Source: Phycisphaerae bacterium
GTDB lineage: Bacteria > Planctomycetota > Phycisphaerae > UBA1845
Assembly (NCBI GenBank): GCA_022072505.1
Contig: JAJVHU010000022.1
Span: 87,603 to 151,602 of the forward strand
Reading direction: 5' to 3'
DNA: 64,000 nucleotides
Both the position numbers and the translations under genes were made by a program. The notes below the pieces were generated by a model. That model saw only the letters and a list, made by a program, of their open reading frames with translations. It was not told where the DNA came from and did no database searches. Shown here one piece after another: positions 20,040 through 47,947 of the stretch. Numbering within the stretch: the stretch's first letter is position 1; each line of letters begins with the position of its first letter.

Positions 20040-20447
20040 ATGCTTGAATCGTATCAGATCCTCGCAATTTGCATTCTCGGTGTCGTGGCTGCGGCGGGCG
20101 GGGCGTTGATCGTCGCCCACGTGATCGGTCCCGGACGGCGGGGGAAGGTCAAGGATCAGCCCTACGAATCGGGCATGCCGGTCGTGCATGACATCGCACG
20201 GCGGTTCAACATCCGCTTCTACATCATCGCGATGCTCTTCCTGCTGTTCGATGTGGAAATCGTGTTCATCTGGCCTTGGGCGGAGGCGTTCTACCAGAGT
20301 TGCACGAACGGGACGGGGTCGATCATCGTGGACGACGGGACGGTGGCGACGAAGGGGTTTCTGCTTTTCGGGATGGGGATGTTTTTCCTGATCCTGCTGC
20401 TGGGTCTGGTGTACGAGTGGAAGAAGGGGGCGTTTGAATGGGACTAG
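20040..20447 (+). CDS. nuoA: NADH-quinone oxidoreductase subunit A
   Basis: [30 protein letters not shown]. Confidence 0.97.
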
Positions 20448-21037
20448 CGACTTCGGAATCGGCGTTCACGCGCGGAACGGAGTATTCGCTTTCGCGCCTC
20501 GACACCTTCACCGACCTCTTCAAGAAGTACGGGATCAACTGGGCGCGGAAGTATTCGCTGTGGCCGATGCCCTTCGGGACGGCCTGCTGCGGGATTGAGC
20601 TGATGGCGGTGGGGGCGTCGCGCTACGACATCGGGCGCTTCGGCGCGGAGGCGATGCGGTTCACGCCGCGGCAGTGCGACCTGCTGATCGTCGCCGGTCG
20701 CGTGGCGATCAAGATGCTGCCCGTGCTTCAGCGGATTTACAAGCAGATGTCGGAGCCGAAGTGGGTCATCAGCATGGGCGCCTGCGCGAGCACCGGGGGC
20801 GTGTTCGACACGTATGCCGTGGTGCAGGGCATTGATCAGTTTCTGCCGGTGGACGTGTACATTCCCGGCTGCCCGCCGAGGCCGGAGACGATCCTCGAAG
20901 GCTTGATGGCGATCCAGCGGATCGTGGAGAACGACGGGGTGAAGAGCAGCGCCGAGCGCGGACGCGGGCTGGGGATGGTCGTGGACGCGCCGGTGCAGGT
21001 GGCGGTTCCGCTGAACGTGGAGAAGTCGGTGAATTGA
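20438..21037 (+). CDS. nuoB: NADH-quinone oxidoreductase subunit B
   Basis: [28 protein letters not shown]. Confidence 0.97.
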
Positions 21038-21080
21038 GGGCGCTATGGTGACGATCCCGGACAAATCGAGGGAGCCGCTC

Positions 21081-21494
21081 ATGGGTGAGATCAGGGTGAA
21101 GGTGAGGCTTACGAACGCGGTGGACGAGGCGCTTGCCCGACGCGGGCGAATCCCAGCCGCCGAGGTTCGCGTCTATGAAGCGGACGCTATGGTTGACACG
21201 GGCGCGGTTCGTTCAGTGATTCCAACTCACGTTCTTCAACGACTTGGAATTGAGACACGCGGGGAGCGCGTAGCCGAATATGCCGACGGTCGGTGCGATA
21301 CGGTCGGCGTTTCCGAACCCATCATTTTTGAGCTTCAAGGGCGGGATACGCTTGAGGAGGCGCTGGTGCTCGGAGATGAGGTGCTCATCGGTCAGACGGT
21401 CCTTGAGAAGCTCGATCTTCTCGCGGATTGCTCGGGTCGGCGTCTTGTCCCCAACCCCGCGCACCCGGATCAACCCGTGACCAAGGTCAAGTGA
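21081..21494 (+). CDS. Clan AA (retropepsin-like) aspartyl protease
   Basis: AMVDTGA motif and LIGQTVLE flap motif. Confidence 0.8.
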   Translation: MGEIRVKVRLTNAVDEALARRGRIPAAEVRVYEADAMVDTGAVRSVIPTHVLQRLGIETRGERVAEYADGRCDTVGVSEPIIFELQGRDTLEEALVLGDEVLIGQTVLEKLDLLADCSGRRLVPNPAHPDQPVTKVK

Positions 21495-22051
21495 TGGTCC
21501 GAGGGGAAGGCGCGGTGAACGCGAAATCCGAACAAGTCGTGGCGACGTTGACGGAGCGGTTTCCGGACATTGCTTTCGCGCCCTTTGCGTTGGCGGCGAC
21601 CCGGCGTCCGGAAGACGAGCAGACGTGCGTGCGCGTTCCGGCGGATCGGTTGCTGGAGGTGATGAGGTTTTTGTACGACGACCCGCGCTGCCGGTTCGAG
21701 CAGTTGTGCGACCTGACGTGCGTGGATTACCTGAACTTTCCGAAGGCGCGGGATCGGTATGGCGTGACGTACTCGCTGTTGTCGCTGTCTCTGGAGCAGC
21801 GGATCTGGGCGAAGTGCTTCGTGAACGACCCGAGTCCGGAGGCGCCGAGCGTGACGGGCATCTGGCGCGGGGCGGAGTGGATGGAGCGCGAAGTGTACGA
21901 CCTTTTCGGCGTGCGGTTTGCCGGACATCCAGACTTGCGGCGGATCATGACGTGGGAAGGGTTCACGGCGCACCCGCTTCGGAAGGACTATCCCCTGCGC
22001 GGACGCGGCGAGCGGGAGCGCTTCGAGGTTGTGACGACGGAGAGCGCGTGA
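21494..22051 (+). CDS. nuoC: NADH-quinone oxidoreductase subunit C
   Basis: WMEREVYDLFGVRF.GHPDLRRI, HPLRKDYP; start ATG 21494 or GTG 21515. Confidence 0.95.
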   Translation: MVRGEGAVNAKSEQVVATLTERFPDIAFAPFALAATRRPEDEQTCVRVPADRLLEVMRFLYDDPRCRFEQLCDLTCVDYLNFPKARDRYGVTYSLLSLSLEQRIWAKCFVNDPSPEAPSVTGIWRGAEWMEREVYDLFGVRFAGHPDLRRIMTWEGFTAHPLRKDYPLRGRGERERFEVVTTESA

Positions 22052-22056
22052 GGAGA

Positions 22057-22161
22057 GGCAACAGGGAATAGGCGACAGGGAATAGGCAATAGGCAATAGG
22101 CAATAGGCAACAGGCAACAGGCAACAGGCAACAGGCAACAGGCAACAGGCAACAGGGAACA
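22057..22161 (+). repeat. Heptamer tandem repeat GG(C/G)AA(C/T)A x15
   Basis: Counted 15 consecutive 7-nt units. Confidence 0.95.
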
Positions 22162-22261
22162 GGGAAAAAACCTTGGCAGAAGTCTGCGTGCTGTTTCTTG
22201 ACGGTGTGCATTGCAGGAGTCACGGGGCGAAAGCGAACTTCGGGCCGGTGGGAGGGTAGAC

Positions 22262-22732
22262 ATGAATCTGTTCGACAATCCACAGAAGACCGGCGAGATC
22301 GTGCGTGAACTCACGGTCTCATACTGGATGGAGATGGAGACGATCCAGAATTACCTGGCGAACTCGGAGAACCTGGACGGCGTGCGGGCCGAGGAGATCA
22401 AGAAGGCGCTCGCCGCGGACATCGCCGCCGAGCTTGGCCACGCGACGCAGCTCGCCAAGCGCATCCGCGTCCTCGGCGGGCGCGTGCCGGGAAGCATGGA
22501 GTTCGTGGCGTCGCAGAAGTCGCTTCAGCCGCCGAAGGACTCGACCGACGTGGTCAGCGTCATCAAGGGCGTCATCGACGCGGAGGACGGCGCGATCCAC
22601 CAGTACCGCAAGATCATCCGCCTGTGCGACGGGTACGACTACGCGACTCAGGACTTGTGCATCACGCTGATGGAGAACGAGGAGTCGCACCGGCGGGAGT
22701 TCGTGGGGTTTTTGAGGGAGTATGAGAAGTAG
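22262..22732 (+). CDS. Ferritin-like (bacterioferritin/rubrerythrin-type) four-helix protein
   Basis: E..ELGHA ... AEDGAI..Y ... EESH di-iron pattern. Confidence 0.85.
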   Translation: MNLFDNPQKTGEIVRELTVSYWMEMETIQNYLANSENLDGVRAEEIKKALAADIAAELGHATQLAKRIRVLGGRVPGSMEFVASQKSLQPPKDSTDVVSVIKGVIDAEDGAIHQYRKIIRLCDGYDYATQDLCITLMENEESHRREFVGFLREYEK

Positions 22733-22777
22733 GGTCATCTTGCTTCAGAAGGCGCGTTTACTACGGGGTTGGAAACC

Positions 22778-23023
22778 ATGCGGAGCTTAAGGAAGGAGAA
22801 AGTAGTCGCTACCAGAAAACGACGACGCGAGGTCGCGGAGGAGATGGAGGCTTTGCGATCGGCGCAACGCAACCAGCGCTTCGCGGCAGCGTGGCGCATG
22901 TCTGAGTTGACGCACTACATTCAAACCGGGCAGTGCGCAATGCCGCGCCTGGATCGGAGCGTCGCATCTTTGTGGAAACGTACGCCACGGGGGCGGCGGC
23001 TTATCCGGCGGATCTCCTTATGA
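22778..23023 (+). CDS. Small basic hypothetical protein
   Basis: Open frame; stop overlaps (ATGA) the ATG of the nuoD 5' copy. Confidence 0.45.
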   Translation: MRSLRKEKVVATRKRRREVAEEMEALRSAQRNQRFAAAWRMSELTHYIQTGQCAMPRLDRSVASLWKRTPRGRRLIRRISL

Positions 23024-23142
23024 CCACTGCCACCACCATCCCGCCCGAACCGTCTACATTCGCCCCGGAGGAACCCGGCGGCGATTTGTGGACGCCGCAC
23101 TTGGGCCCGTGGTGCCCGGCGACGCATACCGCCCCGCCCCGG
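23020..23142 (+). repeat. Abandoned copy of the first about 40 codons of nuoD
   Basis: MTTATTIPPEPSTFAPEEPGGDLWTPHLGP vs MTTATYNPPEPSTFAPEEPGGDLWTLNFGP at 23573. Confidence 0.95.
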
Positions 23143-23229
23143 GTGCATGGTCGCGGCGTGGAGAGTGTCATTCCGCGTCGCGGGAATAGCGTAACACAGT
23201 TGGTTCAGGCGTATCGGAGTTGAGTCGCG

Positions 23230-23427
23230 ATGATCGCGTACAAGACCATTGCCACACTCTCGAAAGACCATTCCGTCACGCTCGAAGCGTTGCCGTTCTC
23301 GGCGGGTGAACAGGTGGAGGTCATTCTTCTTGCGAGAACACCCGGCAACGGCGAGCCGACCTTCCCGCTGCGTGGTCGGCCTGTGAAATATGTGAACCCG
23401 ACAGACCCTGTCGGGGAAAAGGATTGA
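23230..23427 (+). CDS. Small antitoxin-like protein, possibly C-terminally truncated
   Basis: VTLEALPFSAGEQVEVILL...PLRGRPVKY..PTDPV pattern. Confidence 0.6.
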   Translation: MIAYKTIATLSKDHSVTLEALPFSAGEQVEVILLARTPGNGEPTFPLRGRPVKYVNPTDPVGEKD

Positions 23428-23441
23428 GGACGGGTTGTCCG

Positions 23442-23552
23442 CGTGATCCGGTGGACCAGCTCATTGCGGCGACGGCGCGAATCCACGGATGTGAGCTTGC
23501 AACAGTGGATAACCGGATCATTCGCAGCGGCGTGGTACAAACGCTGAGGTGA
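23442..23552 (+). pseudogene. C-terminal remnant of VapC/PilT PIN toxin
   Basis: RDPVDQLIAATARIHGCELATVDNRI; N-terminal two-thirds absent. Confidence 0.75.
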
Positions 23553-23572: not shown

Positions 23573-24832
23573 ATGACCACCGCAACCTACAATCCACCTG
23601 AACCGTCCACGTTCGCTCCGGAAGAACCCGGCGGCGATTTGTGGACGCTGAACTTCGGGCCGCAGCATCCGGCGACGCATACCACCCTGCGCCTCGTGCT
23701 GGAGCTTGACGGCGAACGCGTGCTGCGCGCCACGCCGCACATCGGGTATCTGCACAGCGGGTTCGAGAAGCTCGGGGAGCACCTGAACTACAATCAGTAT
23801 GTGGTCGTCACGGACCGCATGAACTACGTCTCGCCGATGGCCAACAATCTCGCGTGGCATCACGCGTGCGAAAGACTTTTCGACATCGAGATCACGCCGC
23901 GGTGCAAGGTGATCCGAACGATCTGCGCGGAGCTGGCGCGGATTCAGGACCATCTGCTCTGCGTCGGCGCTGCGGCGCTCGACCTCGGCGCGCTGACGGC
24001 GTTTCTGTACGGCTTCAACGAGCGCGAGATGATCTACGACCTGTTCGAGGAGATCTGCGGGGCGCGGTTCACGGTCAGCTACACGCGCGTCGGCGGGCTT
24101 ATGCAGGACATTCCGGCGGAGTGGCCCGCGCATGTGAAGGCGTTCTGCAAACATTTGCCGACAGCGATCGCCGATCTGGAATCGCTGCTGAACCGCAATC
24201 GCATTTTCATCGAGCGCACGAAGGGCGTGGGCGTGATCGGGCGCGAGGACGCGATCAACTGGGGTCTGACGGGTCCGCTCGCGCGTTCCGCCGGCGTGCG
24301 CCGCGACCTTCGCAAGGATGAGCCGTACCTGTGCTACGCGGCCGACTGGGACGGCAAGGGTTCGTCGGGCGTGGAGTTCAAGGTGCCGATCGCGACGGGC
24401 GGCGACGTGCTCGCGCGATACCTGGTGCGCCTGGAGGAGATCAAGCAGTCGCTGTCCATCCTTGCGCAACTGGTGGACAACATTCCGCCGGGTCCGATCA
24501 ATGTGCTGCCCGACGACAAGAAGGCGCTGCCGGACAAGCGCGAAGTGTACTTCAGCATCGAGGGCCTGATCCACCACTTCGAGACGATCATGACCAACCG
24601 GGGCTTCACGCCGCCTGTGGGCGAGGCATACGGTTGCCAGGAAACCGCCAACGGCGAACTGGGTTTCTACCTGGTCAGCGACGGCGGCAACTGCGCGTAT
24701 CGCGCGAGATGCCGCCCGCCGAGCTTCATCAATTACCAGTGCTTTCCGAAGCTCGTGGAAGGGCACCAGATCAGCGACGTGGTGGCGATCCTCGGGTCGC
24801 TGAATATCATCGCGGCGGAGTTGGACCGGTGA
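23573..24832 (+). CDS. nuoD: NADH-quinone oxidoreductase subunit D
   Basis: NFGPQHPATH, GYLHSGFEK, DRMNY, C-terminal ELDR. Confidence 0.97.
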   Translation: MTTATYNPPEPSTFAPEEPGGDLWTLNFGPQHPATHTTLRLVLELDGERVLRATPHIGYLHSGFEKLGEHLNYNQYVVVTDRMNYVSPMANNLAWHHACERLFDIEITPRCKVIRTICAELARIQDHLLCVGAAALDLGALTAFLYGFNEREMIYDLFEEICGARFTVSYTRVGGLMQDIPAEWPAHVKAFCKHLPTAIADLESLLNRNRIFIERTKGVGVIGREDAINWGLTGPLARSAGVRRDLRKDEPYLCYAADWDGKGSSGVEFKVPIATGGDVLARYLVRLEEIKQSLSILAQLVDNIPPGPINVLPDDKKALPDKREVYFSIEGLIHHFETIMTNRGFTPPVGEAYGCQETANGELGFYLVSDGGNCAYRARCRPPSFINYQCFPKLVEGHQISDVVAILGSLNIIAAELDR

Positions 24833-24844: not shown

Positions 24845-25444
24845 ATGGTACAGCACGCACCGAATATTGAATGGCATTTTCGAGCCGTGGAACGTATCGA
24901 GCGACTACTCAAGACGGTAACTTCCGCTCTCGACGCGGCCGGGATTGAGTATGCGGTCATCGGCGGCAACGCCGTAGCGACCTGGGTCGCCTCCCGCGAC
25001 GAGGGGGCTGTCCGCGCCACCAAGGACGTGGATATTCTGCTTCGCAAGAGTGATATCCAACGCGTGGCGGATACGCTCGCTCCGCTTGGGTTCATCAGCG
25101 CGGACGTGATGGGCATCCCCGTATTCATGGAGGCGTCGCACCCGCTTCCGAGCCAGGGCGTGCACGTGATCGTCGCCGGCGAGAAAGTCCGGCAGACGTC
25201 TTGTCATGTTGCCCCGGATGTTCGCTCCGTGACCCGATCCGCCAGCGGACACCTGGTCCTGGACCTCCTGCCGCTTGTGATGATGAAACTGGATGCATTT
25301 CGATTGCGGGACCAGACGCATCTGGTGGATATGCTCTCGGTCGGCTTGCTGGACGCGAGTTGGAAGGACAAACTGCCCGAAGACCTGCGGCCACGGTTCG
25401 AGCAGGTACTGGAAGCCTATGAGCGGGAAGAGCGCCGCGGATGA
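24845..25444 (+). CDS. Nucleotidyltransferase-fold protein (AbiEii/AbiGii-like)
   Basis: YAVIGGNAV ... RATKDVDILL ... MKLDAFRLRDQTHL. Confidence 0.7.
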   Translation: MVQHAPNIEWHFRAVERIERLLKTVTSALDAAGIEYAVIGGNAVATWVASRDEGAVRATKDVDILLRKSDIQRVADTLAPLGFISADVMGIPVFMEASHPLPSQGVHVIVAGEKVRQTSCHVAPDVRSVTRSASGHLVLDLLPLVMMKLDAFRLRDQTHLVDMLSVGLLDASWKDKLPEDLRPRFEQVLEAYEREERRG

Positions 25445-25501: not shown

Positions 25502-26050
25502 ATGGACGCCTTTGAGAATCTTGTGGCAACCTTGGTCCATGCCGACGGTTACTGGGTGAGGACCTCGTTCGCGGTTGAGCTTACAAAAGATGAGAAGCGT
25601 GCGGTCGACAACCCAACCATGCCCCGACCGGAGATCGACGTGCTTGCCTACAAGCCGGCGCTAAACGAGGTTCTCGTAATAGAGTGCAAATCGTACCTGG
25701 ATTCCACGGGCGTGACGCATCGGAACTTTACAGAGACGAGTAAACATCGTTACAAGTTGTTTCACAATCCGGTCCTTTGGCGCGTTGTCGGAAGGGCGAT
25801 CATCAGACAACTGGAAAAATCAGGCGCAATCCTAAGCGGCGCACGGGCGACGCTTTGTCTGGCGACGGGAAGAATACGAAATAATTCAGACCGCGAGTTG
25901 CTTCACGCCGTGTTCAGCAAGCGCGGTTGGAGGCTGTTTGACGACAGGTGGATATCCGAGCGGACGCAGGGCATGGCGAAGTCGGCGTATGTCAACGACG
26001 CGGCGATCATCGCCCTAAAGATGGCCGATCGCTTCCGCGGCGCCTCCTAG
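25502..26050 (+). CDS. PD-(D/E)XK nuclease-like protein
   Basis: EIDVLAY ... VIECKSY motif. Confidence 0.6.
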   Translation: MDAFENLVATLVHADGYWVRTSFAVELTKDEKRAVDNPTMPRPEIDVLAYKPALNEVLVIECKSYLDSTGVTHRNFTETSKHRYKLFHNPVLWRVVGRAIIRQLEKSGAILSGARATLCLATGRIRNNSDRELLHAVFSKRGWRLFDDRWISERTQGMAKSAYVNDAAIIALKMADRFRGAS

Positions 26051-26107: not shown

Positions 26108-26770
26108 ATGGCCTGGATACCCCTCGATCGTAACAAACCCGCGTTCCCAAAGGACGCGCCGCCGATCCTCACCGAAGCAGTGCGCGAAAAGATACGCTTC
26201 TTCTTTTCGCGTTACGCGACGAGGCGCGCGGTGCTGCTGCCCGCGCTGCATGTCGTGCAAGACGCGCTGGGGCACGTCTCGATGCAGGCGATGACGGAAA
26301 TCGCCGAGCTGCTCGAGATTCACCCGTCGGAGGTGATGGACACGGTTTCGTTCTACACGCACTTCTGGACGCATCCGAAGGGTAAGAAAGTGATCGTCGC
26401 GTGCCGGAGCATTTCGTGCGAAGCGCTCGGCGGTCAGAAGGTGATCGACGCGGTCAAGCAGCACCTGCACGTTCGCGAGCACGGCACGACGGCGGACGGG
26501 ACGTACAGCTTCATGACCGAGGAGTGCCTGGCCGGATGCGACCACGCCCCGTGCCTGCTGATCGGCGAGCGGATGCACAAGCAGGTCAAGCCGGAGGACG
26601 TGCCGAAGCTGCTGGCGGACGCGGGGAACGACCGGATCGCGGCGCCGCGCAGCGACTTGTTCGACGCGCCGGCGGCGAAGGGCGGCGCGTCGAACGGACG
26701 TCCCGGAGGGGGTTCCAGCGCGGAGACGGTCGGCGCGACCAGCGACATCCGCGAAATGCGTGAGGCGTAG
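26108..26770 (+). CDS. nuoE: NADH-quinone oxidoreductase subunit E
   Basis: VSFYTHF, CRSISC, ECLAGCDHAP 2Fe-2S ligands. Confidence 0.95.
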   Translation: MAWIPLDRNKPAFPKDAPPILTEAVREKIRFFFSRYATRRAVLLPALHVVQDALGHVSMQAMTEIAELLEIHPSEVMDTVSFYTHFWTHPKGKKVIVACRSISCEALGGQKVIDAVKQHLHVREHGTTADGTYSFMTEECLAGCDHAPCLLIGERMHKQVKPEDVPKLLADAGNDRIAAPRSDLFDAPAAKGGASNGRPGGGSSAETVGATSDIREMREA

Positions 26771-26993
26771 GAATCGCACGACGCGATGGATCCGGCGGCA
26801 GGCGAGCACGAGTCTTTCAACGCGCCGGAGCCCGGCAAGCCGTCGCGCGGGGCAAAGGTCGCGCGGACGTCTGAAGCGCACGGTTCCGGCGGTGCGGCGC
26901 CGCAGGAGCAGGGGGCATCGGGTCCGCCGATCGCGGGCGCAGGCGGATCAATCTGGGCGTGCGATTACTCCCTGTCGGACGTGAAGACGTGGC

Positions 26994-28265
26994 TTGTGCG
27001 GCGGCCGAAAGCTGCTCGGGCTGGCTGCGGTTTACGTCGTTTATTTTTTTCTTCTGGACGCTCCGCTTTGGCGCGGGCCGGGTCCGTACAACGATCACAC
27101 GTCCCCGCGTTACGGGCAGACATGCCCGGCGACCTTTTTCGGCAACCGGGTCATCGTCTACGAAGACAATCTGAACATCGGTGAGGCCGTCGGGTGGTGG
27201 CGGGGGACGTTCGAGTTGCCGTTCCGGCGGTTGGACACGGCGCTGTTCGAGGGGCGGATTCTCAACGCTTATCCGCCGATGATGACGCTGATCGCGGCGG
27301 CGGTGATCCCTTTCTGCGCGGAGGGCGTGCCGCAGGTGCTGCTGGCGGCGCTGCTGGGTCTGCCGCTGCCGGGGCTGGCGTACTGGCTGATGCTGAAGCG
27401 GACGCGGCGGGTGTGGATGGCCGTTGTACTGGCGATTGCGCTGGTGTGTGGGACGTCGGTGTTTCCGGTTCTGCGTTGGGCGTTGCGGTCGTCGCAGGTG
27501 TATCACGTGAATCATGTGTTGGCGGTCGCGGGACAGCTCGTGATGCTGGCGGAGTTTTTCGGGCGACGACGGGTGGGCGTGATGGGGCTGGGGTTGATGC
27601 TGGCGGCGTGGTCGCGTCAGTTGACGGCGTTCTACGCGATCCCGCTGATCTGGGCGGCGTGGCGCGGAAGCGAGGATTCGGTCGGGACGATGGCGCGCGG
27701 GTCGTCGCGGGGCGCGCGGATGGCGCAGGCGGCGGCGGTGTGCGCGGTGGTGGCGGGCGTGCCGGCGGTGCTGAATACGTTGAAATTTCACCGGCCTTGG
27801 GACTTCGGATATCGGCACCTCTACGAGGGGATCGAGTCGGAGCAGGCCCGGTGCGCGAAGATCGGGATCTTCTCGCCCGCGTTCATCGCGCGGAACGCGT
27901 ATGTGCTGAACCTCGGGCTTCCGAAGCTGAAGCGCGAGTACTACGGTTGGAGGCTGGTGACGAACTTTCAGGGCACGGGCATCTGGTGGACATCTCCGTT
28001 GCTGCTGTATCTGCTGCCGGCGTTCCGAAAGATCGTGATGGACGCGGCGTCGCGCGTCTGGCTTGCGGCCGCCGCGCTGGTCGTGCTCGGCATCCTCATG
28101 TATCATACGACGGGGAAGTTTCATCAGGGGCATCACCGGTTTTCGACGGATTTCATCCCGGTGTTGTTCGCGTTGCTGGCGCCGCGATGGAATGCGGCGA
28201 GGCGTCCGTGGCTGGTGTGCGTGTTCGCGCTTTGCGGGATCGGCTGGTTCGTGAGTCTCCCGTAA
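26994..28265 (+). CDS. Polytopic membrane protein, GT-C glycosyltransferase-like; true start uncertain
   Basis: About ten hydrophobic segments; SRQL, HRFSTDF motifs. Confidence 0.5.
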   Translation: MCGGRKLLGLAAVYVVYFFLLDAPLWRGPGPYNDHTSPRYGQTCPATFFGNRVIVYEDNLNIGEAVGWWRGTFELPFRRLDTALFEGRILNAYPPMMTLIAAAVIPFCAEGVPQVLLAALLGLPLPGLAYWLMLKRTRRVWMAVVLAIALVCGTSVFPVLRWALRSSQVYHVNHVLAVAGQLVMLAEFFGRRRVGVMGLGLMLAAWSRQLTAFYAIPLIWAAWRGSEDSVGTMARGSSRGARMAQAAAVCAVVAGVPAVLNTLKFHRPWDFGYRHLYEGIESEQARCAKIGIFSPAFIARNAYVLNLGLPKLKREYYGWRLVTNFQGTGIWWTSPLLLYLLPAFRKIVMDAASRVWLAAAALVVLGILMYHTTGKFHQGHHRFSTDFIPVLFALLAPRWNAARRPWLVCVFALCGIGWFVSLP

Positions 28266-28299
28266 GCGAAAAGGAAAGACGAGGATCCGGGGAGTCGGC

Positions 28300-29607: not shown

Positions 29608-29618
29608 GGACAAACTCG

Positions 29619-37964: not shown

Positions 37965-37981
37965 AGCGGTAATGACGACCC

Positions 37982-40545: not shown

Positions 40546-41378
40546 CTCCCGCGGCGCTTTACACGTTGTATGCGGCGTTCGTGCTGGGGGGCGCGGGCTT
40601 GTATTTTCTTCTGCCGAACCCGGACCGGGGCAAGCCGCTCGCCGGGGCGGCGCTGGGCGCGCTCGGGCTGGCGGCGCTGATCGTCGCGTGGGCGCTGGTC
40701 GGCGACGCGGGAACCGGCGCGGCGTTCTACGCGCTGGGGGGGGTGGCGGTGCTTTGCACGGTCCGGGTGATCACGCACCCGAAGCCGGTGTACTCGGCCT
40801 TGTATTTCGTAGTGACGGTGCTGGCGGTGGCGGCGTTGTGCGTGCTTCAGGGTGCGGAGTTTCTGGCGGCGGCGCTGGTCATCATCTACGCGGGGGCGAT
40901 CCTGGTGACGTACGTTTTCGTCATCATGCTGGCGCAGCAGTCGGGACCGTCGTCGGCGGACCGGCGATCGCGCGAGCCGTTCCTGTCGGTTTGCGCGGGG
41001 TTCGTGACGATGGCGGTGATCACGGTGCATGCGTCGAAGGCGCTGGAGTCGAACGCCGCCGCCGCGGGGCGGGGTCGCGCGGAGGCGAGGTTGGCGTCCG
41101 CGGTTACGGAGGCCGGCGCGCCGGCGGGGATCGCGGAGGATGGAGCAACGCTGTCGGACGACGGGGCGAAGCGGTCCGCGGCGACGCCGGGGAACGCGAT
41201 GGCGCTGGGCGGCGCGGTGATGACGCGGTACATGGCGGCGTTGCAACTGTCGGGGCTGCTGCTGCTGATCGCGATGGTCGGGGCGGTGGCGATGTCGCGG
41301 AAGCGCGTGCCGCAGGAAGGCGCGGTCGCGCCGAGGGCGCCGCTGGGGCAGGCGGGGCGCGAAGTGCCTCCGTATTGA
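40542..41378 (+). CDS. nuoJ: NADH-quinone oxidoreductase subunit J
   Basis: [30 protein letters not shown]. Confidence 0.93.
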
Positions 41379-41420: not shown

Positions 41421-41723
41421 ATGCCGGGAACGACGGAGTACGTGATCCTAGGGGCCTGCCTCTTCGCGCTGGGGATGGCGGGGTTTTTCGCGCGGCGGAA
41501 CCTCATCGTGATGTTCCTCTGCACGGAGATCATGTTTCAGGGCGTGGTGCTGACGGTGGTGGGGTTCTCGAAGTTGTGGGCGAATCTCGACGGGCAGGCG
41601 TACGCGCTGTTCCTGCTGGTGATCGCGGCGGTGGAGGCGGGACTGGCGCTGGGGCTTGTCGTGTTGCTTTACCGTCGCCGGGGGACACTGGACGCGGAAG
41701 CGTGGTCGGTGATGAGAGGATAA
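41421..41723 (+). CDS. nuoK: NADH-quinone oxidoreductase subunit K
   Basis: RRNLIVMFLCTE, IAAVEAGLAL. Confidence 0.95.
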   Translation: MPGTTEYVILGACLFALGMAGFFARRNLIVMFLCTEIMFQGVVLTVVGFSKLWANLDGQAYALFLLVIAAVEAGLALGLVVLLYRRRGTLDAEAWSVMRG

Positions 41724-41830
41724 TTGCGAGGGGCGAACAACGAATGCGCGTGCTTCGGCTGCGGAGAGGCTGTTTCGGGGGTGGGGAGCGCTTCCTTGCT
41801 GCTTCAAACTGTCGGAGGAGAGCGAGAGAA

Positions 41831-42170
41831 GAGCGCTTCCTGACGGGCGCGGCTCGGTTGTGCGGAAGCGCGTGAAGGAAGAGCGCTTCCTGACGGGCGC
41901 GGCTCGGTTGTGCGGAAGCGCGTGAAGGAAGAGCGCTTCCTGACGGGCGCGGCTCGGTTGTGCGGAAGCGCGTGAAGGAAGAACGCTTCCTGACGGGCGC
42001 GGCTCGGTTGTGCGGAAGCGCGTGAAGGAAGAACGCTTCCTGACGGGCGCGGCTCGGTTGTGCGGAAGCGCGTGAAGGAAGAGCGCTTCCTGACGGGCGC
42101 GGCTCGGTTGTGCGGAAGCGCGTGAAGGAAGAGCGCTTCCTGACGGGCGCGGCTCGGTTGTGCGGCAGCG
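41831..42170. repeat. Tandem array of a 50-bp REP-containing unit (6 full + 1 partial)
   Basis: GA(G/A)CGCTTCCTGACGGGCGCGGCTCGGTTGTGCGGAAGCGCGTGAAGGAA; reverse complement of the 9276/16594 core. Confidence 0.97.
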
Positions 42171-42191
42171 TCTTATCAACGACCGTCATAT

Positions 42192-44387
42192 ATGGACCTG
42201 GGTTTACTGAAGATTCTGGGGATCGTCATTCTGCTGGCGCCGCTGGGCGCGGCTGCGGTTTGCGGCGCGCTGGGACCGCGGCGGCTGCGGGATCGAACGC
42301 ACTGGGTGAGCATCCTGGGGGTGGGGTCGGCGGCGGTTGCGGCGCTGGTTCTGCTTCTGCACGTGGCAAGCCACGGGAGCGGAGAGGCTTCGACACACGG
42401 GGGGACGCATGCCGCGGTCGGGGCGACGATTCCGGTGTACGACTGGATTCCGACCGGCGTTGCAGGGGGACGTGCGGCAGGGGCGGTGGATGAGGACGGG
42501 CAGGTCGGAGACCTGTCCTACCAGGACAAGCAGGTCGGAGACCTGCTCCACCAGGACGGGCAGGTCGGAGACCGGTCCTACCAGGACAAGCAGGTCGGAG
42601 ACCTGCTCCACCAGGACAGGCAGGTCGGAGACCTGCCCTACCGATGGTTTCGCGTCGAGTTTCTGGTGGATCCGCTGACGGCGATCATGCTGGCGACGGT
42701 GACGTGCATTGCGCTGCTGATCGTCATCTACTCCCGGGATTACATGCGACATCACGATCACGCGGAGCGCGGGTACGAGCGGTTTTTCGCGTATCTGGCG
42801 CTTTTTGTGTTTTCGATGTGCGCGCTGGTGCTGGGGGGGAACTTCCTGCTGCTGTATCTGGGGTGGGAGGCGGTGGGCCTGTGCAGCTACCTGCTGATCG
42901 GATTCTACTACGGCAAGCCCTCGGCGGCGGCGGCGGCGAAGAAGGCGTTCCTGGTCAACCGGGTGGGGGACTTCGGGTTCGGGCTGGGGATCCTGCTGAT
43001 CTACCTGACGTTCGGCACGCTCAGCTACGCCGACGTGTTCGACATGATCGCGCGGAACGTGGACGCGACGGGGGCGGCGCTGGAGACGTCGAAGCTGACG
43101 ACGATCGCGCTGCTGCTGTTCTGCGGGGCGGCGGGGAAGAGCGCGCAGATTCCGCTGTATGTCTGGCTGCCGGACGCGATGGAGGGTCCGTCGCCGGTGT
43201 CGGCGCTGATTCACGCGGCGACGATGGTGACGGCCGGCGTGTACATGATCGCGCGGTGCGGGGCGATCTTCGTGCATTCTGAAACGGCGATGCTGGCGGT
43301 GGCGGTGGTCGGGGCCTGCACCGCGCTGTTTGCGGCGACGATCGCGCTGGTTCAGACGGACATGAAGCGGATTCTGGCGTACTCGACGATCAGCCAGCTC
43401 GGCTACATGTTCCTTGCGCTGGGGGTGTACGCGGCGGATTCGGCGGTGTTTCACTTGTTTACGCACGCGTTCTTCAAGGCGCTGCTGTTTCTGGGCGCGG
43501 GCAGCGTGATGCACGCGATGGGGGGCGTGATCGACGTGCGGCAGTTCGGCGGTCTGCGCCGGGTGCTGCCGAAGACGTGCGTGCTGGTGGTGATCGGGTC
43601 GCTGGCGCTGGCGGGGTTCCCGATGTTGTCGGGGTTTTTCAGCAAGGACGAGATTCTGCATCACGCGCTGCACGTGCATCCGGTCCTGGGGGCGATGGGG
43701 CTGGCGACGGCGGTGCTGACGGCGTTTTACACGTTCCGGATGGTGTTTCTGGCGTTCGCCGGTCCGCCGCGCGTGCCGGAAGGCGTGCATCCGCATGAGT
43801 CCGGGGGGTGGATGATCGGGCCGATGAGCGTGCTGGCGGTCGGGGCGGTGCTGGTCGGATACCTCGGCGTCGGGTTCACGGGGAAGCCGTTTCACACGTT
43901 TCTTGAGCCGGTCATCGCCAACACGTTCCTCGCGGCCGGACCGAACGCCGCGGGAGCGCATGCGGCGGGCGGCGAGGCGGTCGGTCATGCGGCATCCGGG
44001 GGGTTTCTGGCGGAATACGGGCTGATGATTCTGTCGGGGGGGCTTTCGGTGCTGGCGATCCTGGCGGCGTACGTGGTGTACGCGAAAGCGCCGTGGATGG
44101 CGGCGACGGCGCGGGCGACGTTTCCGCGGGCGCATGACGTGTTGTGGAACAAGTATCGCGTGGATGAAGCGTATGACCGGATGATCGTGCAGCCGCTGCG
44201 GTCGCTGGGGCGGGTTTGCTTTTACCTGGATGAGTACCTGGTTGACGGGATCATCTGGGTCATCTCGTTCGTTCCGCAGGCGCTGGGGTACGGGGCGCGG
44301 GGGGTGCAGCGCGGGGCGCTTCAGGGATACGGGCTGGCGATGGGGGTAGGGCTGGCGATCGTGGTGACGGTGGTGTTGACGTGGTAG
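42192..44387 (+). CDS. nuoL: NADH-quinone oxidoreductase subunit L with in-frame repeat insertion
   Basis: WEAVGLCSYLLIGF, GKSAQIPL..WLPDAMEGP, RILAYSTISQLG. Confidence 0.97.
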   Translation: MDLGLLKILGIVILLAPLGAAAVCGALGPRRLRDRTHWVSILGVGSAAVAALVLLLHVASHGSGEASTHGGTHAAVGATIPVYDWIPTGVAGGRAAGAVDEDGQVGDLSYQDKQVGDLLHQDGQVGDRSYQDKQVGDLLHQDRQVGDLPYRWFRVEFLVDPLTAIMLATVTCIALLIVIYSRDYMRHHDHAERGYERFFAYLALFVFSMCALVLGGNFLLLYLGWEAVGLCSYLLIGFYYGKPSAAAAAKKAFLVNRVGDFGFGLGILLIYLTFGTLSYADVFDMIARNVDATGAALETSKLTTIALLLFCGAAGKSAQIPLYVWLPDAMEGPSPVSALIHAATMVTAGVYMIARCGAIFVHSETAMLAVAVVGACTALFAATIALVQTDMKRILAYSTISQLGYMFLALGVYAADSAVFHLFTHAFFKALLFLGAGSVMHAMGGVIDVRQFGGLRRVLPKTCVLVVIGSLALAGFPMLSGFFSKDEILHHALHVHPVLGAMGLATAVLTAFYTFRMVFLAFAGPPRVPEGVHPHESGGWMIGPMSVLAVGAVLVGYLGVGFTGKPFHTFLEPVIANTFLAAGPNAAGAHAAGGEAVGHAASGGFLAEYGLMILSGGLSVLAILAAYVVYAKAPWMAATARATFPRAHDVLWNKYRVDEAYDRMIVQPLRSLGRVCFYLDEYLVDGIIWVISFVPQALGYGARGVQRGALQGYGLAMGVGLAIVVTVVLTW
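42495..42644 (+). repeat. Five 30-bp palindromic units inside nuoL
   Basis: Each has CAGGTC-GGA-GACCTG (one GACCGG); encodes (D.QVGD...Q) x5. Confidence 0.97.
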
Positions 44388-44424: not shown

Positions 44425-44516
44425 GAGGGTGACGCGAGACCAACGTCGAGTGAAGGGGGTGACGTTTTGCGGCGGATGCCGGTTGTCCGTGGGTCGCGGC
44501 TAACTCAGAGCGCTGA

Positions 44517-46400
44517 ATGATGTCGAGTTGGATTCTTACGTTGGTGATTTTTGCGCCGCTGGCGGGAGTGGGGGCGCTGGCGCTGATGCGCGGGGAGAAC
44601 AAGCGGGCGATCGAGCGCGTGGCGCTCGGGGCGTCGCTTGCGGCGCTGGTGCTGGCGGCGGTGGCAGCGGCGCTTTTCTTTCAGGACGCGCCGAAGGGCG
44701 GATTCGGTCTGAAGGCGACGTACGCTTGGTTGGAGGGCGGAGCAGGGGGGGGAGCGCTGCCTGACGGTGGCGGGTCGGTCGGCGGCGTCGATGTGGCGTA
44801 CCGGGTCGGGGTGGACGGGATCAGCATCTGGCTGCTGCTGCTGACGGCGTTTCTGACGCCGCTGGCGATTGCGTCGAGTTTTTCGGCGATTCAGGAGCGG
44901 GTTCGGGAGTACTACATCCTGATGCTGCTGCTGGAGACGGCGATGCTCGGGGTGTTCTGCGCGCTGGATCTGCTGCTGTTCTACATCTTCTTCGAGTTCA
45001 CGCTGGTTCCTCTTTTCTTCCTGATCGGGATCTGGGGCGGGAGCGAGCGGCGACGGGCGTCGGTGAAGTTCTTCTTGTACACGCTGGCGGGGAGCATGAT
45101 CACGTTCGCCGGCGTGTTGTACACGGCGTACTACGCCTACCGGAGCGGGGCCGGGGCGTTCACGCTGAACCTTGAGGAGCTGATGCGGTTGTCGCGCGAG
45201 GGGGCGTTCCCGGCCGGGGTGCAGGGGTGGATTTTTCTGTCGTTTGCGGCGGGGTTTGCGATCAAGGTTCCGCTGTTTCCGCTGCACACGTGGCTGCCGC
45301 TGGCGCACACGGAGGCGCCGACGGCGGGCAGCGTCATTCTGGCGGGCGTGCTGCTGAAGCTGGGGACTTACGGATTCTGCCGGCTGAGCCTGCCGCTGCT
45401 GCCGGAGGCGTCGCGTGCGTTCGCCCCGGCGCTGGCGGTTCTGGCGATCGTCGGGATCATTTACACGGCGCTGGCGGCGTGGGTTCAGACGGACGTGAAG
45501 AAGCTGGTGGCGTACTCGTCGGTGTCGCACCTGGGCTTCTGCATGCTGGGGCTGTTCAGCATGAAGCTGGCGGGGATGAACGGCGCGGTGATGTACATGA
45601 TCAATCACGGGCTGTCGACGGGGGCGTTGTTCCTCGTGATCGGCTGTCTTTATGAGCGATATCACACGCGCGAGTTCGCGAAGCTGGGGGGACTGGCGCG
45701 GCGGATGCCGGTGATGGCGTTCTTCCTGATGGTGTTCACGTTGAGCAGCATCGGGCTGCCGGGGCTGAACGGCTTCATCGGGGAATTCCTGGTGCTGCTG
45801 GGGACGGCGACGTCCGGATCCACGCTGGACGGGCTGGCGCCGGGTCCGCTGGGGTTCTCGTATGCGGCGGTGGCGGCGACGGGGATCATCCTCGGGGCGG
45901 TGTACATGTTGTACATGTGCGGGCGGGTGTTGTTTGGTCCGCTGGTGGAGCCGGTTGGGGGGGGGCACGGCGGGGATGTCGAGCACGGCGGAAGCGTGGA
46001 TCACGGCGGACATGACGGCGAGGATCATCGCGGGGGGGATCTGACGCGACGGGAGGTGGCGATTCTGGCGCCGATCGCGGCGCTGTGTCTGTTGCTGGGC
46101 GTGTATCCGAAACCGATGCTGGCGTCGATCCAGGCTGCGGCGGAGGCGAACATTTTTTCGGTTGACGATCAGAAACATGCGGAAGGGGAAGCGGCGCCGA
46201 GGGGACGGCGAGCCGCGCAAGCGAATGCTGAATTCGGAATGCCGAATGCTGAATTGACTTACCGCCGTGTTGAAGATTCGCGAGAGCCTGTTGTGTTCCT
46301 GACGCCGCATTTCGCGCGTCTGCTGTCGTTGTCTGACTGCGGCGGAGACCCGCGGGTCGGAAAAGCCGCGTCGCCCGCCTCGACGGGAGGCGCTCAATGA
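44517..46400 (+). CDS. nuoM: NADH-quinone oxidoreductase subunit M with long C-terminal tail
   Basis: FFEFTLVP, IKVPLFPLHTWLP.AH.EAP, KKLVAYSSVSH. Confidence 0.97.
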   Translation: MMSSWILTLVIFAPLAGVGALALMRGENKRAIERVALGASLAALVLAAVAAALFFQDAPKGGFGLKATYAWLEGGAGGGALPDGGGSVGGVDVAYRVGVDGISIWLLLLTAFLTPLAIASSFSAIQERVREYYILMLLLETAMLGVFCALDLLLFYIFFEFTLVPLFFLIGIWGGSERRRASVKFFLYTLAGSMITFAGVLYTAYYAYRSGAGAFTLNLEELMRLSREGAFPAGVQGWIFLSFAAGFAIKVPLFPLHTWLPLAHTEAPTAGSVILAGVLLKLGTYGFCRLSLPLLPEASRAFAPALAVLAIVGIIYTALAAWVQTDVKKLVAYSSVSHLGFCMLGLFSMKLAGMNGAVMYMINHGLSTGALFLVIGCLYERYHTREFAKLGGLARRMPVMAFFLMVFTLSSIGLPGLNGFIGEFLVLLGTATSGSTLDGLAPGPLGFSYAAVAATGIILGAVYMLYMCGRVLFGPLVEPVGGGHGGDVEHGGSVDHGGHDGEDHRGGDLTRREVAILAPIAALCLLLGVYPKPMLASIQAAAEANIFSVDDQKHAEGEAAPRGRRAAQANAEFGMPNAELTYRRVEDSREPVVFLTPHFARLLSLSDCGGDPRVGKAASPASTGGAQ

Positions 46401-47947
46401 CGTTCGCGGCGCTGGGGCACATCCTGCCGGAACTGATTCTCCTGGTCGGGGCATGCGTGCTGCTGATGCTGGGCGTGACGCGCGTGGGGCGGATCCCGGG
46501 AGCGTCGGCCGGGGCGACTTGCGGCGTGTGTGCGGCGGCGCTGGCGGCGACGCTGTGGGCGGGCATCCCGGACGGGATGGCGGAACTTCCCGGGTTGTCG
46601 CTGTCGCCGATGACGTTTTACGTGCGCTGGCTGACGCTGCTGGTGGGGCTTTTGCTGATCCTGCTGAACTGGCGTCAGGCGGATCCCGCGGAGCAGGGGG
46701 AGTACCTGTCGCTGCTGTTGTTCACGATGCTGGGGGTGCTGCTGACGGCGTCGGCGTCGGACATGGTGGTGTTGTTTTTTGCGATCGAGCTGGTGAGCGT
46801 TCCGACGTACGTGCTGGTGGCGCTGAGCCGTCGGGACGCGCGAGCGTCCGAGGCGGCGGTGAAGTACTTTTTCCTTGGGGCGCTGTCGGCGGCGCTGCTC
46901 GCTTACGGACTGGGCTTCCTTTACGGGGCGGTCGGGACGACGTCGCTGGGGGCGATGGCGCGGGCGATCGGGTCGGGCGCGGAGATCGGCGGGCTGGCGT
47001 TGATCGGGCTGCTGCTGGTGTTCGGGGGGTTGTCGTTCAAGATCGCCGCGGTTCCGTTTCATGCGTATGCGGCGGACGTTTATGAGGGGGCGGCGGCGCC
47101 GGTGACGGCGCTGCTGGGATTCATACCGAAGTTCGCGGGGTTCGTGGCGTTGATCCGCGTGCTGGACGTGTTCGGGTGGGCGATGTCGCCGGGCGTGTTC
47201 TGGCTGATCTGGGGGACGGCGGCGCTGACGATGACGGCGGGGAACGTTCTGGGGCTGCTGCAGCGGAACGTGAAGCGGATGCTGGCGTACTCGAGCATTG
47301 CGCACAGCGGATACATGCTGGTGGCGCTGCTGGTGGGTCCGCGGCTGGGCGACGGACCGATGAGCAACGGCGTGACGGCGCTGCTCTTTTACATGGCGGT
47401 ATACGGCGTGATGAACCTCGGGGCGTTCGCGGCGCTGTCTTCGTTCCGTCGGGGCGAAGACGAGGTTGAGCTGGTGGAGGACTTGTCGGGTCTGGGGCGG
47501 TCGCAGCCGGGCGCGGCGCTGGCGCTGAGCGTGTGTCTTTTCAGCCTGATGGGTTTTCCGCCGACGGCGGGTTTTCTCGGGAAGGTGTACCTCTTCAGCG
47601 GGGCGTTCTCGGTGGGGGAGGATCACGCTTATGCAGGGGCGCTGACGGTTCTGGCGGTGATCGGGGTGCTGAATTCCGCGGTGGCGGCGGCGTATTACCT
47701 GCGGGTGGCGGCGGTGTGCTGGGTCAGCTCGGAGCGCGAGCGGCTGACGCCGGCGTCGGGCATGTCGGGTCGGCTGGGGCTGACGATTGCGGCGGTGGCG
47801 ATGATCGCGTTGTTTGTTTCGCCGGGCGCGCTGCTGAGCAAAGCGCACGTCGCCTCCGAGTCGCCGGGAGCGTCCCTGGAACGAAGCGCGACGGGCCGTG
47901 CGGCAGTGGACGGAGGCGACCTTCTTCGCGTGGCGGATGAACGCTGA
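46397..47947 (+). CDS. nuoN: NADH-quinone oxidoreductase subunit N
   Basis: EAAVKYF, FKIAAVPFH.Y.AD.YEG, KRMLAYSSIAH. Confidence 0.97.
   Translation: MTFAALGHILPELILLVGACVLLMLGVTRVGRIPGASAGATCGVCAAALAATLWAGIPDGMAELPGLSLSPMTFYVRWLTLLVGLLLILLNWRQADPAEQGEYLSLLLFTMLGVLLTASASDMVVLFFAIELVSVPTYVLVALSRRDARASEAAVKYFFLGALSAALLAYGLGFLYGAVGTTSLGAMARAIGSGAEIGGLALIGLLLVFGGLSFKIAAVPFHAYAADVYEGAAAPVTALLGFIPKFAGFVALIRVLDVFGWAMSPGVFWLIWGTAALTMTAGNVLGLLQRNVKRMLAYSSIAHSGYMLVALLVGPRLGDGPMSNGVTALLFYMAVYGVMNLGAFAALSSFRRGEDEVELVEDLSGLGRSQPGAALALSVCLFSLMGFPPTAGFLGKVYLFSGAFSVGEDHAYAGALTVLAVIGVLNSAVAAAYYLRVAAVCWVSSERERLTPASGMSGRLGLTIAAVAMIALFVSPGALLSKAHVASESPGASLERSATGRAAVDGGDLLRVADER

Follow-up and report, generated by a model that had tools for sequence, protein, structure and literature searches.

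Accessory genes at the junctions of a complete complex I operon in a Phycisphaerae bacterium and the probable entry of some of them through nuo gene ends

A complex I operon interspersed with co-oriented genes

The window analyzed here is a stretch of 64,000 nucleotides (nt) from the metagenome-assembled genome (MAG) of a Phycisphaerae bacterium (Planctomycetota; GCA_022072505.1; 4.67 Mb in 70 contigs), located on contig C7 (JAJVHU010000022.1; C7:87603-151602), and contains an operon of complex I (nuo) with numerous unrelated genes between its subunit genes. The assignment to the Phycisphaerae agrees with the relatives of NuoF. All coordinates are positions in this window; labels such as C5 or C51 denote contigs of the same genome, and labels such as L001 denote comparison loci or contigs. 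Pfam scans of plus-strand open reading frames (ORFs) identified all 14 nuo genes at 20040-47947, in canonical order and on the plus strand (Table 1). The Pfam matches span nearly the whole profile in 14 of the 14 genes; the gene content is that of a 14-subunit NDH-1, and the cluster is the only complete 14-subunit complex I operon of the genome.

The subunit genes are tightly packed at the junctions A/B (-10 nt), I/J (-4 nt), J/K (42 nt), and M/N (-4 nt). Two further junctions are free of inserted genes: K/L is filled by a tandem array of 50-nt units, and L/M consists of 129 nt without an ORF. Each of the seven junctions from B/C to H/I contains additional plus-strand ORFs, which amount to 18 intact ORFs (one of them doubtful) and four gene fragments, all on the plus strand. 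The original prediction, made from the sequence alone, had described a complete nuoA-N cluster with exactly these tight junctions, no genes inserted at K/L and L/M, inserts at every junction from B/C to H/I, and about 19 co-oriented passengers, and in these respects it holds. The ORFs that it had read at E/F had to be abandoned because they are out of frame; the GC content at third codon positions (GC3) places the true gene, which encodes 423 amino acids (aa), in a different frame. The ORFs at 27194-28408, 26786-27184, and 26817-28301 (minus strand) were rejected as non-coding frames by GC3, as was an ORF at 34686-35039 (p117).

Table 1. Features of the nuo operon and its passengers. Locations between two subunit genes are given by the letters of these genes.
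Location	Feature	Position	Strand	Evidence and remarks
Upstream of nuoA	Sigma-70-like promoter match	19896-19923	+	Sole plus-strand match, 117 nt 5' of nuoA; E. coli-type consensus match only
	nuoA	20040-20447	+	PF00507, E 1.6e-29
	nuoB	20438-21037	+	PF01058, E 2.6e-29
B/C	asp1, clan-AA (retropepsin-like) aspartic protease	21045-21494	+	PF13650/PF13975, TIGR03698; GC3 0.66
	nuoC	21494-22051	+	PF00329, E 6.7e-44
C/D	7-nt (AGGCAAC) tandem array, 15 copies	22056-22163	+	3' of nuoC
C/D	Ferritin/Dps-like protein	22211-22732	+	PF00210, weak NCBIfam DPS matches; GC3 0.92
C/D	84-aa ORF (p84), doubtful	22769-23023	+	Stop overlaps abandoned nuoD ATG (ATGA)
C/D	Displaced nuoD 5' end	23020-23146	+	80% identical to 23573-23699
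C/D	65-aa antitoxin-like ORF of broken cassette	23230-23427	+	
C/D	PIN (VapC) remnant, C-terminal third only	23433-23549	+	PF01850 profile positions 88-116, E 3.6e-5
	nuoD (live copy)	23573-24832	+	PF00346, E 6.6e-102
D/E	NTase1, nucleotidyltransferase (NTP_transf_5 / AbiEii-like)	24845-25444	+	
D/E	NERD/Mrr-like PD-(D/E)XK nuclease	25502-26050	+	Weak matches
	nuoE	26108-26770	+	PF01257, E 6.3e-39
E/F	423-aa multi-pass membrane protein, GT-C fold	26994-28265	+	GC3 frame analysis
	nuoF (live)	28300-29607	+	Pfam; last ~65 codons within duplicated segment
F/G	vapB1-like antitoxin	29622-29840	+	
F/G	vapC1, PIN toxin	29840-30256	+	PF01850, E 2.1e-9
F/G	Displaced nuoF 3' end, copy 1	30288-30474	+	
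F/G	Zn-ribbon protein gene	30487-30945	+	
F/G	vapC 3' remnant, spacer, and displaced nuoF 3' end, copy 2	30993-31278	+	
F/G	vapB2-like antitoxin	31300-31560	+	
F/G	vapC2, PIN toxin	31557-31979	+	PF01850, E 1.4e-13
F/G	Class I S-adenosylmethionine (SAM) methyltransferase	31990-32967	+	
F/G	NodU/CmcH-type carbamoyltransferase	32972-34714	+	GC3 0.87
F/G	asp2, retropepsin-like aspartic protease	34960-35379	+	D-S-G-A motif
F/G	78-aa Cys-rich ORF	35432-35668	+	Internal duplication; ends 5 nt before nuoG
	nuoG	35674-37308	+	Pfam
G/H	Uma2-family nuclease	37317-37964	+	PF05685, E 5.9e-39; PADLOC PDC-S03, E 2e-31
	nuoH	37982-39232	+	PF00146, E 4.5e-112
H/I	NTase2, nucleotidyltransferase	39257-39847	+	43% identical to NTase1; weak AbiEii match
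	nuoI	39862-40545	+	Pfam
	nuoJ	40542-41378	+	Pfam
	nuoK	41421-41723	+	Pfam
K/L	50-nt hairpin-forming tandem array, 7-9 copies	41763-42220	+	Fills K/L gap
	nuoL	42192-44387	+	Pfam
Inside nuoL	In-frame 30-nt x5 repeat array	42493-42642	+	
	nuoM	44517-46400	+	Pfam
	nuoN	46397-47947	+	Pfam

The two pairs of toxin-antitoxin (TA) genes have the architecture of VapBC modules, in which ORFs of 73 and 86 aa overlap the starts of the PIN-domain genes by 1-4 nt. Neither vapB1 nor vapB2 had a match in the family scans; both are identified by their position and 55% mutual identity, and TA activity is a prediction. The 65-aa ORF at C/D, also without a family match, is presumably an antitoxin, judging from its position. 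Besides a match of the Uma2-family nuclease to a candidate defense system, a PADLOC scan returned weak matches to AbiEii for NTase2 (E 6e-4) and to Upx for the NERD nuclease and none for the other seven passenger proteins tested; NCBIfam scans of the passengers yielded just weak names below the cutoff.

Displaced nuoF and nuoD ends flank inserted cassettes

The last ~190 nt of nuoF are present three times, as the live end (29413-29607) and as two displaced copies downstream (copy 1, 30288-30474; copy 2, 31084-31278), and the first 127 nt of nuoD are present twice. The nuoF 3' ends flank the two VapBC-type cassettes and the Zn-ribbon gene; the nuoD 5' ends flank a broken TA cassette that consists of the antitoxin-like ORF and the PIN remnant, and the abandoned nuoD start is coupled (ATGA) to the ORF upstream of it. 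Copy 1 is preceded by a spacer of ~32 nt and has a frameshifted tail; the tail of copy 2 encodes an amino acid sequence identical to that of the live tail.

In L001, taken as the empty site, the live nuoF end and the Zn-ribbon gene are collinear (88%) with copy 1 and the Zn-ribbon gene adjacent to it, to which they are orthologous. This match indicates that, in the lineage of the window, an 875-nt unit, comprising a new nuoF tail, vapB1, vapC1, and the 32-nt spacer, was inserted in the nuoF end and displaced the old end downstream. Both displaced copies begin at the same codon position of nuoF, and each follows a vapC tail and spacer that the two have in common (87% identity over 293 nt that include the vapC tail), suggesting that this junction was formed once and then propagated. 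The copies differ mainly by silent changes, with silent-to-replacement ratios of 7:2, 6:3, and 9:1 over the 51 codons shared among the nuoF copies and of 8:2 over the first 25 codons of the nuoD copies, which argues that they diverged as working gene ends in different lineages.

No flanking duplication was found around the Uma2 gene, NTase2, asp1, and the NERD gene. The borders of the first three are clean, and NTase2 arrived with a different nuoH tail; the clean borders fit either double-crossover exchange or later loss. A Pfam search of the operon ORFs, which did not include a screen of the whole genome for intI, found no recombinase or integrase domain.

It is extremely improbable that the duplicated ends and serial cassettes are an assembly artefact, that is, variants of several strains in the metagenome strung together. 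In favor of an artefact, the genome is a MAG, the Logan contigs are interrupted at the repeats, and one contig (L160; Logan SRR10609166, 905 nt) even contains an alternative join, with the spacer and copy 2 (100% identical to 31043-31279) followed by vapB1 and vapC1. However, the junctions of the window are reproduced by L161 (Logan, SRR10609164), which corresponds to 29434-30338 (99.8%) and bridges nuoF, vapBC1, and copy 1; by L162 from a different assembly (GCA_009612775.1), which corresponds to 30168-31140 (100%) and leads from the end of vapC1 via copy 1 and the Zn-ribbon gene to copy 2; and by L163 (SRR10609167, 10.6 kb), which corresponds to 31250-37979 (100%) and reaches the Uma2 gene. 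Moreover, a junction of the type vapC end, spacer, and mid-nuoF cannot come from a linearized strain bubble. L160 ends with its own starting 30-mer (a period of 875 nt), as might be expected of a circle that was excised, of a tandem, or of a chimera in the assembly graph.

Turnover of passengers among related operons

The operon was compared across 24 related loci, in which passengers were recognized by tblastn and Pfam; all close relatives are MAGs. The operons range from compact (L028, L014, L011, L013, and L009; in some of them, aside from the E/F gene) to differently loaded (L001, L002, L003, L166, and L168), and every recognizable passenger is co-oriented with the nuo genes. The comparison across the clade that the original prediction had called for thus indicates that most inserts are accessory and turning over.

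The nearest relatives are L001 (94% identity of NuoF) and L166 (92%; the locus covers nuoF to nuoJ only), followed by L002 (89%). Common to the window and L001/L166 are the ferritin-like gene, NTase1, the E/F gene, the Zn-ribbon gene, the methyltransferase, the carbamoyltransferase, and asp2. L001 lacks asp1, the NERD gene, both VapBC pairs, the Uma2 gene, and NTase2, and its G/H junction represents the empty site for Uma2; L166 lacks the VapBC pairs, Uma2, and NTase2; L002 has asp1 and NTase2. Individual passengers extend further: the ferritin-like gene is present in both L001 and L002, the methyltransferase in L001, L002, L166, and L168, and a NERD nuclease follows the nucleotidyltransferase also in L003 and L081. 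The Zn-ribbon gene is located directly 3' of nuoF in L001 and L166. Two Planctomycetota MAGs (L096 and L098) with 99% identical NuoD differ in their inserts at B/C, E/F, and F/G, and their nucleotidyltransferase alleles are only 57% identical.

The cargo would accordingly comprise three ages: old residents tied to one junction (the GT-C protein, the D/E nucleotidyltransferase, and the retropepsin-like protease), genes shared with the nearest relatives only (the ferritin-like gene, methyltransferase, carbamoyltransferase, and Zn-ribbon gene), and lineage-specific cassettes (vapBC1, vapBC2, the antitoxin with PIN remnant, NERD, Uma2, NTase2, and asp1).

Old residents of single junctions

Three of the inserts are old and junction-specific, namely the GT-C protein at E/F, the nucleotidyltransferase at D/E, and the retropepsin-like protease at F/G. 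The E/F protein, which is present at this junction in most relatives, has no Pfam or NCBIfam sequence match. According to its AlphaFold2 model (predicted local distance difference test, 88; predicted template modeling [TM] score, 0.90), it has the GT-C glycosyltransferase fold of AglB, ArnT, PglB, and PMT (top Foldseek matches 3wak, 5f15, 7e9s, and 6p25; probability 1.0, TM ~0.45). Two or three large membrane-protein ORFs occur in tandem at nuoE/nuoF in several other loci (L019:1335-5432, L017:7382-10001, L006:7016-9902, and L023:4579-7586); those of L019 and L017 are 27-33% identical to the GT-C protein of the window and are thus paralogues of the E/F resident.

Homologs of NTase1 occupy the nuoD/nuoE position in 16-17 of the ~20 closest cases, and more distant homologs are located elsewhere. 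The pairwise identities of the nucleotidyltransferase and of NuoD are uncorrelated (Spearman 0.02, p=0.79, 120 pairs), with extreme pairs of 99% (NuoD) versus 57% (nucleotidyltransferase) and 96% versus 62%. NTase1 itself is a mosaic, whose 5' part resembles L001 and whose 3' part resembles L002/L003 and is followed by the NERD gene as in L003. The failure of the alleles to track the phylogeny of NuoD argues for exchange of the D/E nucleotidyltransferase by recombination, and the sequence pattern points to an allelic hot spot that would be exchanged through its conserved flanks.

The subfamily of asp2 resides in nuo operons of two phyla. Among the 80 nearest homologs, 34 are encoded within a nuo operon; the junction is F/G in Phycisphaerae and E/F in Chitinophagales (Bacteroidota; L186, L188, L189, L193, L194, L201, L208, L213, L219, L226, L228-L230, L233, L234, L237, L240, and L241), and in both phyla they are tightly placed, often 0-72 nt from nuo genes. 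All nuo-resident copies fall into one clade of 51 sequences (Shimodaira-Hasegawa-like approximate likelihood ratio test [SH-aLRT], 95), and a second clade of 27 sequences has none; the state (nuo-resident or not) changes 7 times on the tree, compared to 28 times in shuffles. Some of the Chitinophagales loci have further inserts of 0.4-1.6 kb beside the protease gene.

Such residents raise the question whether the inserted genes, or the old ones among them at any rate, encode factors that are specific to the lineage, have accessory or assembly roles in complex I, and are kept in the operon for co-regulation, with the retropepsin-like protease, the methyltransferase, the ferritin-like protein, the GT-C protein, and the nucleotidyltransferase as candidates. 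This explanation agrees with the single supported clade of nuo-resident asp2 homologs and the steady positions of the GT-C protein and the nucleotidyltransferase, and Rhodobacter capsulatus, with the intermixed ORFs of its nuo operon, offers a precedent; all the same, it seems unlikely, because the presence of the genes is patchy, several relatives have a compact operon that lacks all of them, and the small passengers have a low GC3 (see below). Moreover, nucleotidyltransferase alleles that are uncorrelated with NuoD are the pattern of conflict or defense genes rather than of subunits, and no function in complex I is known for VapBC, Uma2, and PD-(D/E)XK nucleases. The original prediction had named inserts that are ancient, fixed components as a finding that would contradict it; this applies to the GT-C protein, the D/E nucleotidyltransferase, and the F/G protease and does not apply to the majority of the inserts, which are accessory.

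Base composition and transcription signals

The codon-usage contrast proposed as a check in the original prediction is clear, with a mean GC3 of 0.73 in the passengers versus 0.86 in the nuo genes (Mann-Whitney p=2e-4). The nuo genes range from 0.82 to 0.90; the small passengers, namely the proteases, nucleotidyltransferases, NERD, both TA pairs, Uma2, and the small ORFs, range from 0.60 to 0.78. A host-like GC3 is found in the ferritin-like gene, the E/F membrane protein, the methyltransferase, and the carbamoyltransferase.

Most passengers are located 0-60 nt from their neighbors or overlap them, and most start 4-24 nt past the preceding stop or within it. The gaps measure 12 nt between nuoD and NTase1, 14 nt between nuoF and vapB1, 8 nt between nuoG and Uma2, 17 nt between Uma2 and nuoH, 24 nt between nuoH and NTase2, and 14 nt between NTase2 and nuoI; asp1 starts 7 nt past the stop of nuoB and overlaps the ATG of nuoC with its own stop (TGATG). 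Start/stop overlaps, as originally described, are present and are of the ATGA and TGATG types. So is the reported lack of clear terminators: terminator-like sites are no more common than in shuffled sequence (10 versus 15.0 +/- 4.5 expected in one half and 20 versus 13.1 +/- 3.8 in the other), and none is located in an intergenic junction. No Rfam element was found in 19000-49000. The short distances and overlaps leave most passengers too little room for a promoter or terminator of their own, and the spacing together with the consensus scans is a weak argument that the passengers may be co-transcribed with the nuo genes.

There are, however, six gaps of 129-468 nt, located at nuoC/ferritin, PIN remnant/nuoD (where a spacer of ~24 nt lies beyond the remnant), nuoE/GT-C, carbamoyltransferase/asp2, K/L, and L/M. 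They might separate several independent transcription units in which passengers have their own promoters and the common orientation reflects only that transcription in a head-on or antisense direction is selected against. Autoregulation of a promoter of their own is the norm for TA modules, and the value of the promoter scan is limited outside E. coli-like sigma-70. Nevertheless, such an arrangement is quite unlikely, given that most passengers start so close to the preceding stop and that both vapB genes, at distances of 14 and 21 nt, have no room for a promoter and operator.

The same signature at other loci of the genome

A self-comparison of the genome identified ~27 genes with a repeat of their own 3' or 5' end at a distance of 0.3-6 kb that is not part of a long ORF. 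The loci include C5:536-4518, C70:1586-8875, C44:17295-22093, C11:2287-5096, and C30:17544-24397, and several are serial arrays with TA-sized ORFs between the copies, as behind C5:2980-4518 (where five copies separate TA pairs), in C70 and C44, and at gcdH in the present window. At C51:8117-10768, two copies of the 5' end of a glyS-like (glycyl-tRNA synthetase) gene (127 nt, 89%) enclose a TA-like cassette of two genes, as in the case of nuoD. The repeat arrays at C6:4.7-16.2 kb and on C40 were excluded because they represent tandem paralogues with conserved C-terminal domains.

Other conserved operons also contain inserts: a 130-aa ORF of low GC3 is located between atpG and atpD (C9:85128-85520), a 165-aa ORF between rpoB and rpoC (C25:53630-54127), and an 85-aa ORF on the opposite strand between rpsG and fusA in the str operon (C25:46486-46743). 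The nuo operon is the most extreme case of a genome-wide habit and not a unique target. A second, partial nuo-like cluster at C51:13108-18857 contains only homologs of nuoI-A-B-C-D; it has a gap of ~0.8 kb at B/C, and D is immediately preceded by a 153-aa ORF in which a short Uma2-like match extends over 40 aa.

The serial arrays might be the products of a dedicated site-specific cassette system, either integron-like or with an integrase acting in trans (as in phage 21/e14 at icd), that would use att-like sites in gene ends. Repeats and cassettes alternate in the arrays, arrays occur at several genes (C5, C70, C44, and gcdH), and the two displaced nuoF ends start at an identical position and share the preceding spacer; the last feature, however, is explained by common descent of one junction. 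Across the ~30 events, the borders have no common motif (no 8- or 9-mer occurs in more than three of them), the length of the repeats is anywhere between 46 and 278 nt, and 5' as well as 3' gene ends are used, which argues against a single site-specific recombinase. Together with the absence of a recombinase among the operon ORFs scanned, this renders a dedicated system very improbable.

nuo junctions as probable hot spots of recombination

The junctions of the nuo operon have probably become hot spots of recombination, at which small accessory genes, most of them lacking a promoter, accumulate by means of homology arms in the nuo genes and would be expressed by read-through. The subunit genes would be suited to serve as homology arms because they are so conserved, and there may be two routes of entry. 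In the first, flanking nuo genes would provide the crossovers for allelic exchange; in this manner, the D/E nucleotidyltransferase alleles would be shuffled independently of NuoD, and the mosaic NTase1 may have brought the NERD nuclease along. In the second, incoming DNA with the end of a nuo gene and a cassette would recombine inside the resident gene end, so that the end from the donor takes over as the live one and displaces its predecessor. Candidate sites of this route are the nuoF 3' end around vapBC1 and around the Zn-ribbon gene and the nuoD 5' end around the now-broken TA cassette. Only co-oriented, non-terminating inserts would survive, and their cargo would be read through from the nuo promoter and often be translationally coupled.

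Several points weigh against this interpretation. The six long gaps could hold internal promoters, and consensus sequences of the E. coli type, on which both the promoter and the terminator scans are based, may not apply to Planctomycetota. In this MAG, the evidence for the order of the three nuoF ends consists of short contigs of the same study that bridge them, and L160 joins copy 2 to vapB1, a join that is absent from the window. For Uma2, NTase2, asp1, and NERD, the route of entry is deduced from presence and absence alone, and genes present in the window and L002 but not in L001 may have been lost from L001 just as well as gained. Finally, the old residents may be partners of complex I, especially the protease, which is located next to nuoF in two phyla.

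The suggestion of the original prediction that an essential, highly expressed operon is used as a safe harbor and promoter source is plausible with regard to the sequence features: the spacing, orientation, low GC3, and turnover of the passengers support it, but part of the cargo is ancient, and other loci have been colonized as well. If recombination at nuo junctions is the cause, the interior of a conserved and presumably indispensable operon would be a dynamic locus of accessory genes rather than a frozen unit, and subunit genes that act as homology arms would allow cassettes to move between lineages without a recombinase of their own. The displaced gene ends would provide a readable record of the order of events. 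For annotation, the operon is a warning, as function prediction based on operon context would mislabel the passengers as components of complex I.

It is also conceivable, though doubtful, that complex I operons are, across phyla, a preferred habitat of a small guild of promoter-less genes that are exchanged through the conserved nuo flanks. Its members would be retropepsin-like proteases, AbiEii-like nucleotidyltransferases, Uma2 nucleases, and VapBC pairs, riding on nuo transcription and translational coupling. They might form a conflict or defense layer wired to the expression of the respiratory chain, or the protease might be a maturation factor of the NADH-oxidizing module (NuoE/F/G), an idea supported by its location adjacent to nuoF in both Phycisphaerae and Chitinophagales. 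The candidates for a link to complex I are the subfamilies of the protease and the nucleotidyltransferase, which occur mainly inside nuo operons.

Comparison with known systems

Reading frames of unidentified function (URFs) in the nuo and nqo clusters of Rhodobacter capsulatus and Paracoccus denitrificans were reportedly described by Dupuis et al. in 1998 and Xu et al. in 1993. Those clusters resemble the present operon in having a complete set of 14 genes in canonical order, co-oriented ORFs that do not encode subunits, and a SAM methyltransferase. For R. capsulatus, the intermixed ORFs of the nuo operon are described as including the SAM methyltransferase urf7 (PMC4758237, PMC9036352). By contrast to the 6-7 URFs conserved in alphaproteobacteria, the present operon has about 18 ORFs, including TA pairs and nucleases, whose content varies among close relatives, and displaced gene ends record their insertion.

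The insertion of restriction-modification (RM) systems accompanied by a long duplication of the target, reportedly documented by Nobusato et al. in 2000, likewise involves addiction-type units without a mobility gene and direct repeats of variable length, from tens to hundreds of base pairs. In the window, nuoF repeats of ~190 nt, beyond the lower limit of 30 bp set for such insertions, flank vapBC1, and a single nuoF end with the Zn-ribbon gene is found in L001 and L166; the inserted units (875, 796, and 553 nt) are far below 20 kb and contain only TA or Zn-ribbon ORFs and no mobility gene. The RM insertions described by Furuta, Abe, and Kobayashi in 2010 likewise lack mobility genes, and their repeats, which are long and of variable length, occur once in the genome without the insert (PMC2853133). 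The cargo differs, consisting here of VapBC-type cassettes and a Zn-ribbon gene instead of an RM system, and so does the target, which is the coding end of a presumably essential gene inside an operon, where one copy must work. In addition, the silent differences between the copies imply an origin of the incoming end in another lineage.

Replacement of a gene end is also said to occur in E. coli, where e14 and phage 21 integrate in icd with a substitute 3' end (attributed to Hill et al., 1989). As in nuoF, the insert supplies the new 3' end, and the displaced end stays downstream with mostly silent differences; unlike the 0.5-0.9 kb units found here, which have neither a recombinase nor a common core, e14 is a prophage with an integrase and an att core. 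In the C-terminal displacement arrays that Jackson et al. reportedly described in 2009 for the rhs and cdiA loci, each acquisition moves the previous gene end, along with the partner gene, farther downstream, which also results in serial arrays. There, the swapped end is a toxin and the cassette an immunity gene, whereas the gene end in the present case would be a housekeeping homology handle. Integron arrays share the short, mostly promoter-less, co-oriented, and TA-rich cassettes behind an upstream promoter, which in the nuo operon is putative. They differ in that the operon ORFs include no intI (the rest of the genome was not screened), the cassettes have no attC-like border and no common site, and they are distributed over seven operon junctions instead of one attI.

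New with respect to these precedents are the scale, the cargo, and the use of operon-internal coding ends. The operon joins three separate fields, namely the URFs of alphaproteobacterial nuo operons, the long target duplication of addiction modules, and the defense hotspots between core genes.

Repeats within the operon

The 78-aa Cys-rich ORF upstream of nuoG consists of two copies of a CxxC...C unit (V-x-CRGCGA...SQCPVYS-Y-x-SF), which is present as one unit in L001 and L166. The units of the K/L array are 98% identical, and two of them fold into a strong hairpin (-50.7 kcal/mol, z -2.4); the number of copies is lower in L001. The array may be an element that processes, stabilizes, or attenuates the mRNA between nuoK and nuoL. 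The array inside nuoL comprises five palindrome-containing units and adds about 50-60 residues to the protein. NuoL of almost every relative is without these residues (~90-152), and ~120 nt of the array are missing in L001.

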